Shown: piece after piece, positions 1 through 6,000 of the stretch
Position numbering within the stretch: position 1 is the stretch's first letter
Layout of the letters: the number at the start of each line of letters is the position of its first letter
NCBI GenBank assembly: GCA_051532055.1
Contig: JAOPTX010000042.1
Location: 53,730-117,729, forward strand
From: Fibrobacterales bacterium
GTDB lineage: Bacteria > Fibrobacterota > Fibrobacteria > Fibrobacterales > JAOPTW01
Length of the DNA stretch: 64,000 bases
Reading direction: 5' to 3'
Program-made: the position numbers

Positions 1-3000
1 TCTATATTGTTGGAGCAAATTTTGACTATCATAAATAAACAGAAAAATGTTTATTGAATGCCCTCAATTAGGGATTTATTCCCTTCAAAGACTACTTGTT
101 ATAATGAAGCGGCCTAAGGGTCGTTAATAATCGATATGATCTTCTGAATAAATAGAATATGAATCAAATATGATTGGTGCATTATTTCCATAGAGTGGAA
201 AAAAGCTGACTTTTACATAGAATGGAGACACCCCATGTGAGAGTATAGGGTTGATGTTTTTGTATGAACCATTTTTATAAAAGGTTACAGTCATCTCATC
301 TTCAACAAACGTTTCAATGGTCTCTGGTGATGTTCCGGTGGTTATGCGCATACGGACCTGAGTACTGTCTGTAAGGTTATTGGGACAGCCATGTAATGAT
401 ACATAGAACTTATCTACCGAATCAACTTTAAGAGTAAAGGAGGACTTTGTCTTCCCCCACAGTAATGGTTCAGCGGTAGACTGTTGAGTGGTACTATAAA
501 AATCAGCAGTATCGAGAGAGAGTAAATCAGTCAGACAATTGTATTTTTTAGAAGTATTCATTGAGCTTCCGTGAGACATTGAGTGGAGTGGTACGGCACT
601 GTATGAAAGATCATATGAAAATTCAGCCGCAGATTTTGGAGTGTACGTTTCTGATGGTGCAGTGAAATAACGACTGACAGATTCAAACGTTACTTTAGTA
701 ATGTCGCCGCTGGTAGAGCGGTCAAACCTGATATGAGCAGAACTCTCAGTATGCCGAAAGAGGTCGGTACTGATGGGTTGAATAGAGAAAAAACCTTGTC
801 CGGTTATCGATACAACGAGTTGACTATCTTGAACAGCAATTATTAGGGCATGCGCAGAGTCGAGAGTGTAGCGTCCGGTATAATCTTGTAATTCACTCTC
901 TGTAAGGGAAGTGGGGGTATAGGTGTTAATACTGTCAAGAAGACGGGTGTCATGATCTATGGTTTCCCTCTGTTTAGTTATGGTGTGAGAGGCCTCTGCG
1001 GTAGTATACACAATCGATAGAGGGTCTGTCGTTTTGTCGAAGGTGCAGTTAATTGAAAAGAGGGTGTTTGAAAAGTTGATTGAATCAGTTGAGCTGAGTT
1101 TAATACTCTCTTTTAGAGGTGTAATAATCCATAATGCATCATTATGTGCAATAAGGGTGAGAGAATCTGAGGAGAGAGGGGAGGTGTACATACCGGTATA
1201 GATACTCAGGAATGATGAATCTAAGGAGAGTTCAGATTGTGTAAGAGGGGTGTCGATAGGACGTTGACACCCTTCTAGATAACAGGGGGAGTCACCGAGA
1301 TGTATGTTTACAGAGTCAGTTTCGGTTAAAACACTACAAAGATAATTCTCATTACAGGAGAGGATATTATATCCGAGTGTGAGTGATTCGATATTTGATA
1401 TGAGGGGATTTCCAAGGAGCGAACTGAGGGCATTGAGTTGGGTTAATTGGTCGTGTTCATTTTGGTCGAACAAGAAGAAGACAAAGCTGTTGAGAGACAT
1501 GCCGGCAATCCAGTCATGGGTGTCATTTGGTGTATAGATATGCTCATTCCAGCGATTTTCAAGGCGGAGATTATGAATGGTCTTAGTGAGGCGCTGGTAG
1601 TGGGCACTTGCGATGGTTGCTTGTTTGAGGCGTTCTTCGAATGGTGATTCATATCCTGTTTTAGGATAGAGTCTCCGGTTGTAGGTATCCTGTATTGTTA
1701 TTCTTCCATTTGAGGAAAAAGTCGTATCAGATTCAACTAACGTAATATTTGCTCTTTTATAGAGAAACTGCTCCCATTTGTTTGAAAAACGGAGTACCCA
1801 CCGGCGTTCACTCGCTAGGTTTAAAGGAGTTAGGTGGTGGTAATCGATAAGTGAGGACCAGCTAGAATCAATTGAAGAGTCTGAGTGCATAAAACTGATG
1901 TCATGAGGGGTATCCCAGAAATAAGAGTCGGTTTGCATAGAATAGTGCTGTATGTCTGATACTTCAGTTAACGCTTGTAATGCAAGAAGAAGGGTTTGTT
2001 TGGACTGTTTTAAGCTATCCCGAAAGTGAATGAGCTCTGGGTGAATTTCATCGTCAAGTGCGCCATTTCCGTTAACATCATCATAGAGATAGATGTTCCC
2101 CAGTATTATATTGAGTGGATTGTTCAGTGAAAGTGGTGGGTTTTCAGAAAGTGTTGTTGAAAAGGGAAAAGGGAAAACTTGATGAGTAGTACTGTTTAAT
2201 GGAATAGAGTATCGAGATATACTTGATTGGTCCATTTCATTCCAAACAATAGATACTTTTGGATTGCTCATTTCATCAAGACGCGAAAATCTCCCCAGTT
2301 CAATAAGTGCCTTTCCGTTAAATGTGAGTAAAGGTTCTGCTGTTTTTTCAGGTTGGGTAATCACACCCGAATTTGTGGAAAAACATCCGGTGAGAAGGAA
2401 TAAAAGGAGAAGGATTATCATGATGTATGTCTGCTATTAGGGGTGTGGCCCTAAATGTACATTTTCAAATAAGGGAATATTTTTTCACGTGAGGATAGTG
2501 GTGGACGTCTACTATTTTTTTACCATTTCACCTCAAATTGCTCAATCTCTTTGAGGTTGTTGAGGGGCTGACGGTATCCTTAACCTTCTGTAATGAGCGT
2601 AAATATTATCTTACAAATATACTTTTGATTTAAAAATAGCTATCTTTACCAGCAATTGAGAGAACAGGTAGTTACACATTGGATAGACCTTCATTTGAAA
2701 TCTTGTATGAGAAATACGCAAATATGGTATATCATGTCTGTTCTCGCTATACTAGAGATGCTGAAATAAAGCAAGAACTCTCTCAAGATATTTTCTGCAA
2801 AGTTTTTCAGAATTATGAGCGTTTCGACCAACAATACGAATATGGTACTTGGATTCATAGAATTGCGGTGAACCGGTGTATTGATTTTTATCGGAAAAAC
2901 AGAGGTATTACCGAAGAACCGATTGAGTATCTTGAAGAACGGTTTGTAGCCGATTCTCAAGTACCCCATTCAGATCCGGTCTCAGCCGTGCAGTTGGAAA

Positions 3001-6000
3001 AGATATTTAAATCTCTTGATGATGAAATGCGCGAGATTGTAATCCTCTCCTTTTTAGAGGGGTACTCCCATCAGGAGATTGCAGATACCTTGGGAAAAGA
3101 TCGGTCAACCATATCAAAAAAAATCCGCATATGGCAAAAGAAACTAAAAAATGATGAAGATTCTCTCTCTAAAGGTGGGGTATTTCTCTCCATTGGATTG
3201 TTTTTAGGCAGTTTCTTTTCCCTTTTTATGATGATCGTCCGTTTAATTTCTATAGGAGACGATATTAATGGCTAATAACGATAATAGAGATAGATTTGCG
3301 CACCACCCTTTTTCAACCAAGAACATTGAGTTATACCTAGTAGGTGAGTTGGATTCTGATACCGTTTCTCGTATTGAAAAACTTTCAGATAAGAATCCCC
3401 ATTTTAATCAATATATAGAAACGTTAAAAAGTAAGGAGAACCCTCAGTCTTTTTCGGAGGTATTCGCCCACTTTCAAAATGAAACCTCTTCAGAAAGAGT
3501 GGCTCAACGTGCACCTCAGAATCAAGCGGTTGATTTATTGAATAGGCTTATGGATTTTTTAGCGGCTCCATTCTACAGGCAATTAGCAGGAGCGGTAACG
3601 GCACTTCTCATTGTTGGATTCACCACTCTTTATGTTGTGCAATCCACTCAAAATGGTGAAAAAAGCATAAAGGTGTTAGCTAAGGGTGACATTAATTTTT
3701 TTCTGTTCCTGAATGATGAACGTGTTACAGAAAAGAGTACAAGGGCGGTGCGGCCTGGGACTCTATTAACCCTGCAATATAAAAACAGTGATGATTTTTA
3801 CGCTATGATTCTTTATAAAGATGATGCTGGTCCGCTCCAGCGTTACATTGCACAAGAGAATCAGGCGGTAGTGGTTCCCTTTTCTTTAAAACCTGTAACC
3901 TATCCCAAGGCAATAAAGCTCCAGGATGATTTTACCAAAGAGCAGTTGTGGATTGCGGTATCAGATGTACCCTTTACCTTTAGTGAGGTTGGTCAGCTCA
4001 TACACAACCCATCTGGTCAATCTGCCATAACTCTCAAAACATACCAACTCATCATGCAACGATAAATCTATGAAATTTTTAATACCCATACTATTGCTCT
4101 CAATAGCGACTCTCTGCGCGTCAGTTGAACGCATTGGGATTTTTGTGGGCAACAATCAGGGTTTGATAACTGAAAAAGATTTAAAGTATGCCGATAATGA
4201 TGCTCGCCGTATGGCTGCTCAATTTCAAGAATCTAAAAACGTAGACGGAAATAATATTTTTCTTTTGGAGAATGCATCTTCTGATCAACTTTTTAATACT
4301 CTACAGAATGTGGGAAGGCAGGTGTCATTACTGAAAGATCAAGGGATTCAAAGTTTGCTTCTCTTCTATTTCTCAGGACATGGAAGTGTTGACGATCTCC
4401 ATATCAAAGGTGAGCACCTGAACAAAACAGATCTCTTTACAAGAATTGAAATGGTTGGCGCTGATGTAAAAGTGTTGATTGTAGATGCGTGTGAATCGGG
4501 GAAGTTATTGAGAAAAAAGGGTGGCTTAATTGTTGATGCCATCAAGGTGGTTCAAGTTGATTCTCTTAAGAGTAAAGGAACAGTGGTATTCACCTCAAGT
4601 GGTGTTGATGAAATTTCTCTGGAATCAGAAGAGTACAAAGGTGCGGTCTTCACGCATCATCTCATTAATGGGTTACAGGGGTTGGCGGATTATAACAATG
4701 ACCGGGAAATTGGATTATGGGAAGCATTTAATTATGCCCAAACCAGTACCCATGCGGATAATATTATTCGTCAGGCATCTCAGCAAAATCCCTCCTTTGA
4801 CTTTGATGTTGTCGGTGAGTCCGATATCTCCCTTGCGCAACTGAATGATAGTTATGCGGAAGTGGTGTTTAATGGTTTTTCTGCAGTCCCGGTTCGTATT
4901 TATAAAAGTCAGACTATGGAACTCTACAGTAGAGTGTTATTGCCGGGAAAACAACAAGTACGGTTTCGACTCCCCACCGGGAGTTATGTGGTTGCAATTG
5001 ATCGGGGCAATTATAGCGAAGCTGCCCGCATCGATTTAACCTGGTCAAACCAAGCACAGGTAGTCCCCAGTGATTTTAAAAGTTATCCTATTACTCTCTT
5101 TGCGGCCAAAGGAGGAAGTCATTATCTTCTTGCTCCCTATGGCATACAGGTGTCAGTAGGTGGTGCCGACCCTACAAACAGTCATGTTCATCAATTTGGA
5201 GTGGCGTCACCCCTGTATCATTATTCTCTGTCTGGGGTGCTTCGTACGAATCGTTTTACTCATAGAATCACTGTGGGGTATGGAAGTGATCAATTACAAT
5301 CGCCCTTGGTAACGCTCGATCGGCAGTTTCTATCTCTGGGGTATGGTCTTTCTCAATCTCTCTATACGGTACGCTATGGTGACCTTCTGATAGGAGGGCG
5401 GCTTTCCTATGTACATCTGTTACAAGAGACCTATGACGCACGCTTTGATGAGATCAATGTCTCTAATGTTAATCAGCGTACTAATAGTCAGGCGTGGATA
5501 CTGCAAGGGGGCATACCTCTTGAATGGGATCTGTATTTGCCTTTTGGATTGTGGGCTACGGTTGGGTATACTGTTTCGGCTTCTCTTTTTAAAGAATATG
5601 CGGGGGAGTATGCGGTTACCTTTAATGGTGCGCCAATGGTTTCTCTTGGGGTTATGTTTTAATATCGCTATTGTTAACTTACAATGAGTTCATATTTAAT
5701 TTCAGGTTATTCGATATTTTGTTTTGTGTAAACGATTCAGCTGATGCCGTTAGGAATTTGGTGTGTATTGTACTCTGAGATTATTATTCATACAGATCTT
5801 TATGTGCTTATTAAAAATTAATTTGAAAATTCTTTAAAATAAGTCCCCAATTTTATTTTGGCCCGTTTAATTAGGTGTAGATCAACGATAGTCTATATGA
5901 TTTTATGTATAAAAAGCATGATATTACTTTTTTCGTTGTGCTAAAAAACGCTATTTGAATCGGTATATATCAAATTTTTGCCTGTGATTAAATTGAATGT

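Follow-up and report, generated by a model that had tools for sequence, protein, structure and literature searches.

In the genome of a bacterium of the Fibrobacterales, a gene for a secreted caspase-like protease follows directly a gene for an ECF sigma factor and a gene for a single-pass membrane protein, which raises the question of what such a protease does in a sigma factor operon. The genome-wide survey's note had read the middle protein as an anti-sigma factor and the caspase homologue as its dedicated site-1 protease or sensor. The association between sigma factor and caspase genes is itself already in print, Fibrobacter included, since it was reported in 2012 that four of the five metacaspases of Myxococcus xanthus share an operon with a sigma-70 factor, an arrangement also recorded for Anaeromyxobacter, Haliangium, Sorangium, Ralstonia and Fibrobacter (PMC3501461). 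The section on operons of that study, by Asplund-Samuelsson et al., deals with co-occurrence only and contains no middle protein, anti-sigma role, topology, motif or mechanism (PMC3501461). What is new here is an (R)-x-K-G motif common to the juxtamembrane linker of the anti-sigma factor and to the caspase loop past the catalytic Cys.

Organization and Copy Number of the Triad

The window, a stretch of 64,000 nucleotides, carried the triad as three ORFs on the forward strand, at 2679-3275 (198 aa), 3268-4065 (265 aa) and 4070-5662 (530 aa); the sigma factor and middle ORFs shared 8 bases, and a gap of 4 bases separated the middle ORF from that of the protease. Exactly seven Peptidase_C14 (PF00656) genes were found in the whole genome (E ≤ 0.01; 8 candidates scored). 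In each case, the gene just ahead of it on that strand encoded a protein of 239-270 aa with a single strong hydrophobic helix. The first gene encoded in all seven cases a 160-199 aa protein with a Sigma70_r2 match, six of which also matched a region-4 model (E ≤ 0.01). This confirmed the gene order claimed by the survey for each of the seven C14 genes, third after an ECF sigma factor and a single-pass protein. A profile search with the middle protein returned exactly seven copies in the genome, so that its pairing with C14 genes is 1:1. These seven proteins shared 14-28% identity, and BLASTP detected four pairs among them (E 5e-12 to 8e-32); the paralogy noted earlier was thus upheld, with four pairs instead of three. 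The nearest-paralogue pairs (T42-T16c and T32a-T32b) were the same for sigma factor, middle protein and caspase; the cassettes diverge as units.

The Sigma Factor and Its Putative Anti-Sigma Factor

The first ORF (2679..3275, + strand) was assigned by Pfam (Sigma70_r2, 61.3 bits; Sigma70_r4_2, 35.7 bits) and by NCBIfam (TIGR02937 sigma70-ECF, 87.8 bits, cut-off 42.9) to the ECF (group 4) sigma factors, with SigE, SigW and RpoE as its closest PDB relatives. Past region 4, it ended in a hydrophobic tail of ~20 aa (KD19 of 2.26 at residue 169).

The second ORF (3268..4065, + strand) probably encodes a DUF4384-type, single-pass anti-sigma factor, as indicated by family-level NCBIfam and Pfam matches and by a structural model. 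The family comprised 4,719 cluster representatives, and NCBIfam anti-sigma models matched the N-terminal ~110 residues in 105/150 and 88/150 of its members, aligning in relatives over a three-helix N-terminal part. Moreover, homologues sharing only this N-terminus (~110 residues) were placed behind an ECF sigma gene at 8/8 loci. The anti-sigma role proposed by the survey is therefore supported at the level of the family, but the window protein itself had no Pfam match and neither an anti-sigma nor a DUF4384 model above threshold, and the anti-sigma profile found no sequence match among PDB chains. The model (pLDDT 79.7) consisted of a confident three-helix N-terminus, one transmembrane helix and a periplasmic β-sandwich. 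The three helices (17-25, 30-42 and 44-55; pLDDT of the block 85-95) formed a putative cytoplasmic sigma-binding domain at residues 17-55 (3316..3432, +), and the family consensus in this N-terminal part of the protein included LERYLLGELP. The transmembrane helix was modelled at residues 102-126 (3571..3645, +), in agreement with the top 19-residue hydropathy window (106-124, KD 2.13). The Ig-like β-sandwich at residues 143-263 (3694..4056, +; pLDDT > 90) gave only generic fold matches (Z < 8). A DUF4384 match was found in 34/150 family members (E ≤ 0.01); the window protein reached E 0.2 only, and the weak DUF4384 matches in the genome were just three, this one among them, all in middle genes. 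By sequence, the sandwich thus appears to be a divergent DUF4384.

The Secreted Caspase-like Protease

The third ORF (4070..5662, + strand) was found by Pfam, modelling (pLDDT 84, pTM 0.75) and Foldseek, with caspases, metacaspases, MALT1 and OmpA as matches, to encode a C14 caspase-like protease with an Ig-like domain and a predicted C-terminal β-barrel. A signal peptide was recognized by eye at residues 1-18 (4070..4123, +) from the hydrophobic N-terminus MKFLIPILLLSIATLCAS; the survey had credited six of the seven proteases with one, and all seven N-termini were so judged here. The caspase domain, at residues 20-250 (4127..4819, +; Pfam Peptidase_C14, 43.5 bits, residues 22-205), contained His104 (4379-4381) and Cys141 (4490-4492). 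H104, D139 and C141 were invariant among 28 homologues, and the seven-way alignment bore out the earlier claim that the catalytic residues are kept (SGHG/SGHA; DAC, DVC in one). Since the catalytic His and Cys are invariant, the enzyme looks active. In addition, D44 and D139 aligned with two aspartates of metacaspase-4, those of CxND and DxC, which form the Arg/Lys-specific S1 pocket of metacaspases, and the specificity of the window caspase would fit a basic P1.

An Ig-like β-sandwich followed at residues 254-340 (4829..5089, +), as seen from the modelled strands, and MALT1 caspase-Ig3 chains were among the top Foldseek matches of the protease (8v4x_D and 4i1p_C, E ~1e-6). MALT1, which is specific for a basic P1, has the same succession of caspase fold and Ig-like domain and the same DxC motif; being a eukaryotic cytoplasmic scaffold protein, it resembles the window protease in architecture only.

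Eight long modelled strands at residues 357-529 (5138..5656, +) formed a predicted outer-membrane β-barrel in a protein whose last residue is Phe; for this barrel Foldseek returned OmpA (9fzd_A, E 3.3e-6, TM(target) 0.63) and also OpcA and Pla; a C-terminal F was present in 6/7 of the protease paralogues. Because signal peptide, caspase, Ig-like domain and OmpA-like barrel were modelled in this order, the window protease is expected to lie in the periplasm on an outer-membrane tether, which refines the periplasmic location given by the survey. Such an anchor is not universal among triad caspases: in one clade, caspases of ~570 aa had no terminal F and were followed by a gene for a ~250-aa lipoprotein instead, and C-terminal anchors and fourth genes differed by clade. 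A TonB-receptor-like gene after the caspase was seen only in Fibrobacter-like genomes.

Divergently from the triad, a 765-aa lipoprotein was encoded at 124..2421 (− strand; DUF3471, 42.9 bits). A paralogue with 34% identity held the same divergent position by triad T16c, and the lipoprotein was not conserved beside triads elsewhere; it is possibly a clade-specific fourth gene or a target. The survey had also suggested, as a hint at targets, that two triads (on C42 and C16) head loci for AB5-B-like proteins. This was not sustained, since tblastn placed paralogues of these small secreted proteins on C42 and C23 only, with none on C16, and no promoter link was found.

A Motif Common to Both Partners

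In the putative anti-sigma factor, the alignment revealed a juxtamembrane L-A-K-G at residues 137-140 (3676..3687, +), corresponding to (R)-x-K-G in the family and proposed as a cleavage site. It was conserved as R 127/150, K 150/150 and G 148/150 among the aligned members, and as K 74/76 and G 70/76 in genome-derived triads, and ended a linker of low model confidence (126-138, pLDDT < 50). In the caspase, R-K-K-G at residues 148-151 (4511..4522, +) opened a disordered loop past the catalytic Cys (149-165, pLDDT < 50) and may be an autoprocessing site; it was kept as R 26/28, K 28/28 and G 28/28 among homologues and as K 75/76 and G 76/76 in the 76 triads, and none of the non-triad C14 proteins checked had RxKG at this offset. 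The window anti-sigma factor has L, not R, at P3, and the P3 residue did not co-vary between the partners (48/17/7/4 table). The K-G of the anti-sigma factor sits three residues ahead of the first sandwich strand of the model, and therefore could be structural rather than a cut site.

Synteny of the Triad

Searches starting from the caspase recovered the order sigma factor, middle protein and C14 at 19/20 loci in relatives. Searches with the middle protein gave all three genes at 19/20 loci in 20 other Fibrobacterota genomes, the 20th being cut by a contig end (19/19 informative), at 30/30 Myxococcota loci, and also in one named Myxococcota MAG. Near the N-terminus-only homologues, no C14 gene was present within 4 kb at any of the 8 loci. 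Thus, the triad synteny is obligate, and the caspase is tied to the periplasmic half of the anti-sigma factor and not to its N-terminus. The three-gene unit is present in many bacteria; these samples agree in direction with the survey's counts of 89/156 Fibrobacterales and 2,779 genomes overall, although those figures were not reproduced as such.

Gene order might reflect shared regulation or inheritance only, with proteins that do not act on each other. An interaction within the triad is indeed something that we infer, and because common descent gives relatives the same gene order, counts across kin overstate independence. That reading is nevertheless very improbable, given that the order was kept across two distant phyla and survived repeated duplication within the genome, with 14-28% identity among the seven middle proteins, that the caspase tracks the periplasmic domain, and that both partners carry the motif.

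Alternatively, the caspase could be the output, with a DUF4384 anti-sigma factor that senses an envelope signal itself or via another protease and a sigma factor that drives its own operon; the outer-membrane-tethered enzyme would then be an induced effector that, for example, turns over envelope proteins, processes secreted ones or serves self-destruction. Autoregulation is common in ECF operons, and with the three genes so tightly packed (8-base overlap, 4-base gap), caspase levels would be expected to increase with sigma activity. Co-transcription would put the protease under the control of the sigma factor, an arrangement no less suited to an output gene than to an upstream activator, and the clade-variable anchors and fourth genes are as might be expected of an effector. 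Moreover, the description of ECF25 in the 2021 ECF reclassification, where subgroup ECF25s13 comes from Fibrobacteres, presents DUF4384 anti-sigma factors with no caspase listed in their conserved context, unlike the window triad (PMC7826278); the window anti-sigma factor differs further from that description in having no Cys in its N-terminal domain. However, one would not expect a mere target gene to remain attached to a single anti-sigma family in two phyla (19/19 and 30/30), or to vanish precisely when the periplasmic domain is swapped (0/8), and the common (R)xKG motif is left unexplained, so that we consider the caspase as output unlikely.

Comparison with Known Systems

In the DegS-RseA-σE-RseP pathway of E. 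coli, the anti-sigma factor is first cut close to the membrane on the periplasmic side (site 1), and an M50 protease then makes the site-2 cut. The triad resembles it in an ECF sigma factor that a single-pass anti-sigma factor of class I would hold and in the presence of an M50 site-2 protease gene in the genome. Whereas DegS is a serine protease of the HtrA type that sits in the inner membrane and is encoded elsewhere, the site-1 enzyme proposed here is a C14 Cys protease encoded in the sigma operon and predicted to be tethered to the outer membrane, and the periplasmic domain is DUF4384-like, unlike that of RseA. The FecI-FecR-FecA system has a gene order of sigma factor, single-pass anti-sigma factor and outer-membrane β-barrel protein, as here, and the signal would likewise run from an outer-membrane protein to the periplasmic domain of the anti-sigma factor; in contrast, the window has neither a FecR domain nor a TonB-dependent transducer with a signalling domain, and its outer-membrane partner carries a protease. 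In ECF54 of the Actinobacteria, with CHAT, subtilase and carboxypeptidase-regulatory-like neighbours, a caspase-superfamily protease is also conserved beside the sigma factor and regulation by proteolysis was proposed, but there is no anti-sigma factor, the protease is CHAT and not C14, and phylum and gene order differ.

A precedent comes from type III-E CRISPR, in which the caspase-like protease Csx29 cleaves the ECF-sigma-binding Csx30; one group of Csx30 C-terminal domains was described in the preprint as DUF4384, a domain often fused to proteases (bioRxiv 10.1101/2022.08.17.504292). Craspase (Csx29-Csx30-RpoE) thus parallels the triad in pairing a caspase-like protease with an ECF-sigma-binding, in some cases DUF4384-ended partner, and together with DUF4384-protease fusions, which elsewhere include orthocaspases, may by analogy serve as precedent for a caspase acting on a sigma-binding protein. 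According to the same source, Csx29 is a cytoplasmic TPR-CHAT protein activated by target RNA on Cas7-11, whereas the window protease is of the C14 type and secreted, and there are no CRISPR genes near its own.

These fusions in cis also fit a regulatory or docking domain, and caspase and DUF4384 domain could instead form a complex in which cutting of the anti-sigma factor is not the signal. The caspase could be a co-sensor that shields the anti-sigma factor from another protease or exposes it, much like RseB with RseA. Alternatively, the KG linker and the DUF4384 domain could together be a pseudosubstrate holding the caspase inactive, in which case the sigma factor would report that the caspase has been activated against other substrates. 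The motif in the linker repeats that of the caspase loop, as expected of a pseudosubstrate, and synteny and co-divergence fit any stable partnership. Nonetheless, the invariant catalytic dyad implies that proteolysis matters somewhere, an invariant basic residue and Gly in a flexible linker are more simply a real cut site, and no second periplasmic protease was conserved in triad neighbourhoods; this reading is accordingly improbable.

Proposed Mechanism

From the observed gene order, domain make-up, family membership, synteny and motifs, we infer a topology, a specificity, both cleavages and an order of events, and give an even chance to the caspase being the site-1 protease of the triad, with cleavage of the anti-sigma factor as the step that activates the sigma factor. 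The role suggested by the survey is consistent with these data and was strengthened by the synteny tied to the DUF4384-type domain, the (R)xKG motif, the acidic metacaspase-type S1 residues and the genomic M50 gene, cleavage itself being the conjectural part. The proposed cut site lies ~13 residues from the inner membrane and the protease on the outer one, so that docking or a narrowed periplasm would be needed.

In this mechanism, the anti-sigma factor would use its N-terminal helices to keep the sigma factor at the inner membrane, and the periplasmic part of this single-pass protein would present a short flexible (R)-x-K-G linker and then the DUF4384-type Ig-like domain. The third protein would be exported as a metacaspase-like, basic-P1 protease domain with an Ig-like domain, hanging in this window off the inner face of the outer membrane via its OmpA-like barrel. 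Upon an envelope signal, the protease would mature by cutting its own R-x-K-G loop and would then cut the anti-sigma linker at the same motif, shedding the DUF4384 domain. The short stub left behind would become a substrate of an RseP-type site-2 protease, and the sigma factor would be released.

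Organization and Conservation of the Sigma/Middle/C14 Triads

Seven PF00656 (Peptidase_C14) matches at E ≤ 0.01, among eight candidates scored, were found in the genome (5.17 Mb, 181 contigs). Upstream of every C14 gene (508–786 aa), and on the same strand, lay genes for a 239–270-aa protein with one strong hydrophobic helix and for a 160–199-aa protein matching Sigma70_r2; for the six C14 genes outside the window, 12.5 kb of surrounding DNA was inspected in each case. The genome-wide survey's note had described all seven C14 genes as the third member of an ECF sigma/middle/C14 cassette, which was borne out in 7 of 7, and a profile of the middle protein recovered exactly seven copies in this genome. 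In the window triad (T42, on contig C42), the first two genes overlap by 8 bases and the second and third are spaced by 4 bases, so that the three genes almost certainly form one transcript. An RNA library from the same sample contributed one 194-base contig at 4332–4525, which does not in itself demonstrate transcription.

The identity between T42 and T16c, a triad on contig C16, was 44% for the sigma factor, 28% for the middle protein and 51% for the caspase, and the two triads of contig C32 (T32a and T32b) shared 43%, 30% and 46%, respectively. Since the nearest-paralogue pairs were identical for all three proteins, the cassettes must have duplicated and diverged as units.

The same arrangement was observed well beyond this genome. 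A search from the caspase side recovered the order sigma, middle protein, C14 in 19 of 20 loci of relatives, the sole exception being a pair of short C14 genes of another type. The middle-protein profile matched in 110 of 151 sampled Fibrobacterota genomes; when we picked the best match of each of 20 genomes of other families, the full triad was present in 19 loci, and the contig of the twentieth ended 290 bases past the middle gene. In Myxococcota, a full triad surrounded one family member in a named MAG, the family occurred in 36 of 81 sampled genomes, and each of the 30 loci listed placed the middle gene between an upstream sigma gene and a downstream C14 gene, all in one orientation. Relatives are not independent observations in these counts, although the pattern covers two phyla. 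The triad is, then, a unit far more general than the seven cassettes of this genome.

The ECF Sigma Factor

The first gene of the window triad (2679–3275, + strand) encodes a 198-aa protein that scored 61.3 bits for Sigma70_r2, 35.7 for Sigma70_r4_2 and 25.7 for Sigma70_ECF in Pfam, and 87.8 bits for TIGR02937, whose cut-off is 42.9. It is an ECF (group 4) sigma-70 factor, with regions 2 and 4 only, a length within the range of ~160–200 aa and a score above the model cut-off. Past region 4, a hydrophobic tail of ~20 residues was noticed in the window sigma factor (3160–3275, residues ~160–198) and in that of T16c (7431–7550 of the fetched locus L010), with hydropathies of 2.26 and 2.49, and of 2.11 in the orthologue of a sister genome; the other five sigma factors of the genome carry no such tail. 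This segment could make the protein a tail-anchored, membrane-bound sigma factor.

The Middle Protein as a Predicted Anti-Sigma Factor

The second gene (3268–4065, + strand) encodes a 265-aa protein without a Pfam family, and a word-index homologue search with it recovered the query alone. A profile built from the seven middle paralogues was therefore the basis of a wider search against 1.84 billion cluster representatives, which returned 4,719 proteins at E ≤ 0.001 (2,341 at E ≤ 1e-10), nearly all of 240–300 aa and matched end to end. The best 150 members were aligned, and each was scanned with Pfam and NCBIfam. NF052375 ("anti-sigma factor") matched 105 of the 150 and NF010501 ("putative anti-sigmaE protein") 88, all under the curated cut-offs and all confined to the N-terminal ~110–140 residues; among the paralogues of this genome, three of seven gave weak matches to the anti-sigma models (E 0.0015–0.012). 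DUF4384 (PF14326) was found in 34 of the 150 at E ≤ 0.01 (best 7.6e-6). The window protein reached 14.1 bits for this domain (E 0.2), against a Pfam threshold of 27 bits, and the only DUF4384 matches in the whole genome were three weak ones, every one in a middle gene.

With the 150-row alignment, the structural model of the window protein improved to a pLDDT of 79.7. It comprised helices at residues 17–25, 30–42 and 44–55 (pLDDT 85–95), a transmembrane helix at 102–126, a linker at 126–138 with pLDDT below 50, and a beta-sandwich at 143–263 with pLDDT above 90. This predicted layout is that of a class I anti-sigma factor, namely a helical N-terminal bundle, one transmembrane helix and an extracytoplasmic C-terminal domain. 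A zinc-binding anti-sigma factor (ZAS, HxxxCxxC) was ruled out, the 265 residues containing no Cys and giving no zf-HC2 match. Searched against PDB sequences, the anti-sigma profile matched nothing beyond coiled-coil or low-complexity noise. Fold searches, in which nearly all matches covered residues 140–265 and the N-terminal helices were barely included, identified generic Ig-like folds only, with a best Foldseek E of 1.8e-4 and a best VIA Z of 7.9 (an alpha-2-macroglobulin domain), none reaching Z ≥ 8. The best fold matches of the sandwich (residues 140–265, window 3685–4062) were MG domains of alpha-2-macroglobulin and of complement proteins (Z 7.9–6.4); these are protease-bait proteins, but Z values of this size are generic, and the likeness is a curiosity only.

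The sigma gene preceded the middle gene co-directionally in all seven cassettes of this genome and, elsewhere, in 19/20, 19/20 and 30/30 loci of the three sets. The earlier reading of the middle protein as the anti-sigma factor thus gained from the family-level NCBIfam matches, from synteny and from the predicted architecture, whereas the window protein itself matches no NCBIfam anti-sigma model. Taken together, it is very probably an anti-sigma factor of DUF4384 type. Homologues carrying only the N-terminal ~110 residues were preceded by an ECF sigma gene in 8 of 8 cases and had a C14 gene within 4 kb in none of the 8, which indicates that the N-terminus is a general sigma-linked module and that the caspase is tied to the linker and the DUF4384-type half. 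That the periplasmic half of the middle protein couples it functionally to the caspase is accordingly considered likely, with only slightly less assurance than the anti-sigma assignment. Profile–profile comparison of the anti-sigma and caspase families detected no common domain.

The Caspase-Like Protease

The third gene (4070–5662, + strand) encodes a 530-aa Peptidase_C14 protease (PF00656, 43.5 bits against a threshold of 21.4, residues 22–205). The catalytic His and Cys, which the survey's note had listed as kept in all seven proteases, proved invariant in the seven-way alignment, and H104 and C141 were likewise unchanged across 28 homologues. Full-length homologues numbered 22, the closest named one, 49% identical, being listed as "caspase family protein [Fibrobacterales bacterium]"; a word-index search with the C-terminal 291 residues recovered the query alone.

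The model obtained from the 28-row alignment (pLDDT 84, pTM 0.75) placed, in order, a signal peptide, a caspase fold at residues 20–250, an Ig-like sandwich at 254–340 and eight long strands at 357–529, with a disordered loop (149–165) directly after Cys141. Foldseek aligned it with caspases, metacaspases, Yca1 and MALT1 (caspase plus Ig) at E ~1e-6, and the barrel with OmpA (9fzd_A, E 3.3e-6, TM(target) 0.63), OpcA and Pla. The barrel strands mostly had a pLDDT of ~90, and the C-terminal residue is Phe, as it is in 6 of the 7 paralogues; a Pfam scan of the window protease matched no barrel model. From the model, the protease C-terminus is predicted to be an OmpA/OmpX-like outer-membrane barrel. 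Both ends of an eight-stranded barrel lie on the periplasmic side, and the caspase-Ig unit would therefore be periplasmic, hanging from the outer membrane.

As for specificity, the best sequence relatives in the PDB were Arg/Lys-specific metacaspases (metacaspase-4, E 7.9e-6). D44 and D139 are matched there by the aspartates of the metacaspase-4 motifs CxND and DxC, which form the S1 pocket of the Arg/Lys-specific metacaspases, and this alignment would fit a metacaspase/orthocaspase-type S1 pocket for a basic P1 residue.

Two variants of the C-terminal part were observed. In the caspase of T32b (4285–6645, − strand, of the fetched locus L012; 786 aa), short repeats of the GFQAAGFMNVS type follow the Ig-like domain ahead of the C-terminus, which suggests a repeat-built beta structure in place of the small barrel. 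In one clade (loci L045, L046, L048, L049, L051, L052 and L053), the caspases are shorter (~565–583 aa) and end without Phe, and each is followed by a gene for a ~245–270-aa lipoprotein-like protein, possibly an alternative anchoring of the protease.

A Shared (R)xKG Motif and the Proposed Cleavage

In the 150-member anti-sigma alignment, K139 was the sole invariant residue; it closes the flexible linker, followed by Gly (G140) in 148 of 150 and preceded at −2 by Arg in 127 of 150, and the motif lies 9–41 residues outside the membrane. The caspase alignment presented the same signature at the start of the disordered loop that follows the catalytic Cys (R148 in 26/28, K150 and G151 in 28/28). 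Across 76 genome-derived triads from both phyla, K was kept in 74 anti-sigma factors and 75 caspases, and the G after it in 70 and 76, respectively. At that offset, RxKG was absent from the more distant C14 proteins P0174–P0194 and from two non-triad C14 genes of a locus from another genome (L031), six of this set having KG at other offsets. No covariation at P3 was detected between the partner motifs, and P3 of the window anti-sigma factor is L, not R.

From these sequence patterns we infer a common recognition site, which would serve both for self-processing in the caspase loop and for the site-1 cut in the anti-sigma linker. The basic-specific, outer-membrane-tethered protease would mature at its own R-x-K-G loop (K150/G151), and the mature caspase would then cut the same motif in the DUF4384 anti-sigma linker (K139/G140). 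That the caspase makes the site-1 cut, at (R)xK|G, as the survey's note had supposed in more general terms, is the best single reading, to which we give about an even chance. Complex prediction with the caspase-Ig unit (residues 19–350) and anti-sigma residues 125–265 scored 0.00 in both runs, which were made without controls, and counts neither way. A gene for an M50 site-2 protease (RseP-type) is found in the genome (C15:139644–140897, 450-aa frame, PF02163 216 bits). With the protease and its substrate in opposite membranes, such a triad could sense how wide or how intact the periplasm is.

Neighbouring Genes and Candidate Targets

Genes outside the triad were not conserved as neighbours, apart from two clade-specific fourth genes, one for a TonB-receptor-like protein of ~830 aa and one for a lipoprotein of ~250 aa. 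In Fibrobacter-like genomes, a TonB-dependent-receptor-like protein of ~815–870 aa follows the caspase (L022, L024, L025, L029, L030, L033), and in L039 such a gene lies upstream instead; the assignment is based on a plug-like motif recognized by eye, and the protein ends in YEYYF. This row of sigma, anti-sigma, caspase and receptor recalls FecIRA. For the window, surface signalling of FecIRA type was rejected, as its proteins gave no FecR or TonB-receptor Pfam match.

A DUF3471 lipoprotein of ~770 aa is divergent from the sigma gene in the window (124–2421, − strand) and at T16c (L010, 8229–10535), the two being 34% identical (E 1e-140), and a weak match lies beside T16a, another triad of contig C16; its position beside triads was not conserved in other genomes. 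A 1034-aa PKD protein (6015–9119) and a 2137-aa subtilase-like protein (10843–17256) share a near-identical tail of ~47 residues (LTHLYSQILGMYGTTMN...NVILPMP; window 8976–9119 and 17113–17256), perhaps a common signal for sorting or anchoring; a different tail (IVPTIITPLLLN) is common to two proteins encoded downstream of T16c.

It had been proposed that two triads, on C42 and C16, head loci for AB5-B-like proteins and switch them on. At least eight small secreted proteins (~115–123 aa) are clustered in the window, at 9182–10572 and about 17296–22788, and an Atlas feature search with them returned the sub-threshold leads DUF5992 (0.89), subtilase cytotoxin B (0.88) and Shiga toxin B (0.85). 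By tblastn, the family was confined to C42 and one copy on C23, with none on C16. Counts from a promoter and terminator scan of 2300–6100 were no higher than in shuffles, and inspection by eye of the regions upstream of the sigma genes of T42 and T16c disclosed no convincing ECF-type promoter. With the small proteins absent from C16 and no promoter link, the proposal was not upheld.

Relation to Known Systems and Significance

The association of caspase homologues with sigma factors has precedents. By Asplund-Samuelsson et al. 2012 (PMC3501461), four of five M. xanthus metacaspases are placed in sigma-70 operons, and the same operon structure is given for Anaeromyxobacter, Haliangium, Sorangium, Ralstonia and Fibrobacter. 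The main text of the 2021 ECF reclassification (PMC7826278) makes no mention of caspase, C14 or peptidase, and a stretch of 357,196 characters of its supplement none of caspase, metacaspase, Peptidase_C14 or PF00656; ECF54 has CHAT neighbours and is without an anti-sigma factor. DUF4384 has been reported on cyanobacterial orthocaspases. In type III-E CRISPR systems, a preprint (bioRxiv 10.1101/2022.08.17.504292) describes how the caspase-like Csx29 cleaves Csx30, a binder of the ECF sigma factor RpoE. The type III-E Craspase module itself (TPR-CHAT with Cas7-11, Csx30 and Csx31) was rejected for the window, in which the protease is a signal-peptide-bearing C14 enzyme that gave no TPR or CHAT match, and no Cas7-11-, Csx30- or Csx31-type genes were found among the ORFs of positions 1–12000. 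In literature searches that covered few subscription papers, no publication was found that proposes a periplasmic C14 enzyme for the site-1 cut of an anti-sigma factor.

We propose, tentatively and at somewhat less than an even chance, that a periplasmic caspase triggers an ECF sigma pathway in thousands of bacteria, in at least Fibrobacterota and Myxococcota, with the self-matured C14 protease cutting a DUF4384 anti-sigma factor in its linker; the Csx29–Csx30–RpoE arm would then be a cytoplasmic offshoot or a parallel. ECF sigma pathways count among the most common signalling routes of bacteria; to our knowledge no C14 enzyme is among their known site-1 proteases, nor do we know of a function for most bacterial caspase homologues. 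If the proposal is true, it would add a new protease class to the regulated proteolysis of anti-sigma factors and a widespread non-CRISPR counterpart to the type III-E step in which a caspase cuts a sigma binder. It would also provide a concrete substrate for a large proportion of the C14 proteases of bacteria, the proposed substrate family comprising 4,719 cluster representatives and adjoining the protease in all loci checked. Caspase-type proteolysis would thus be an ordinary means of envelope-to-gene signalling in bacteria, not a cell-death tool.
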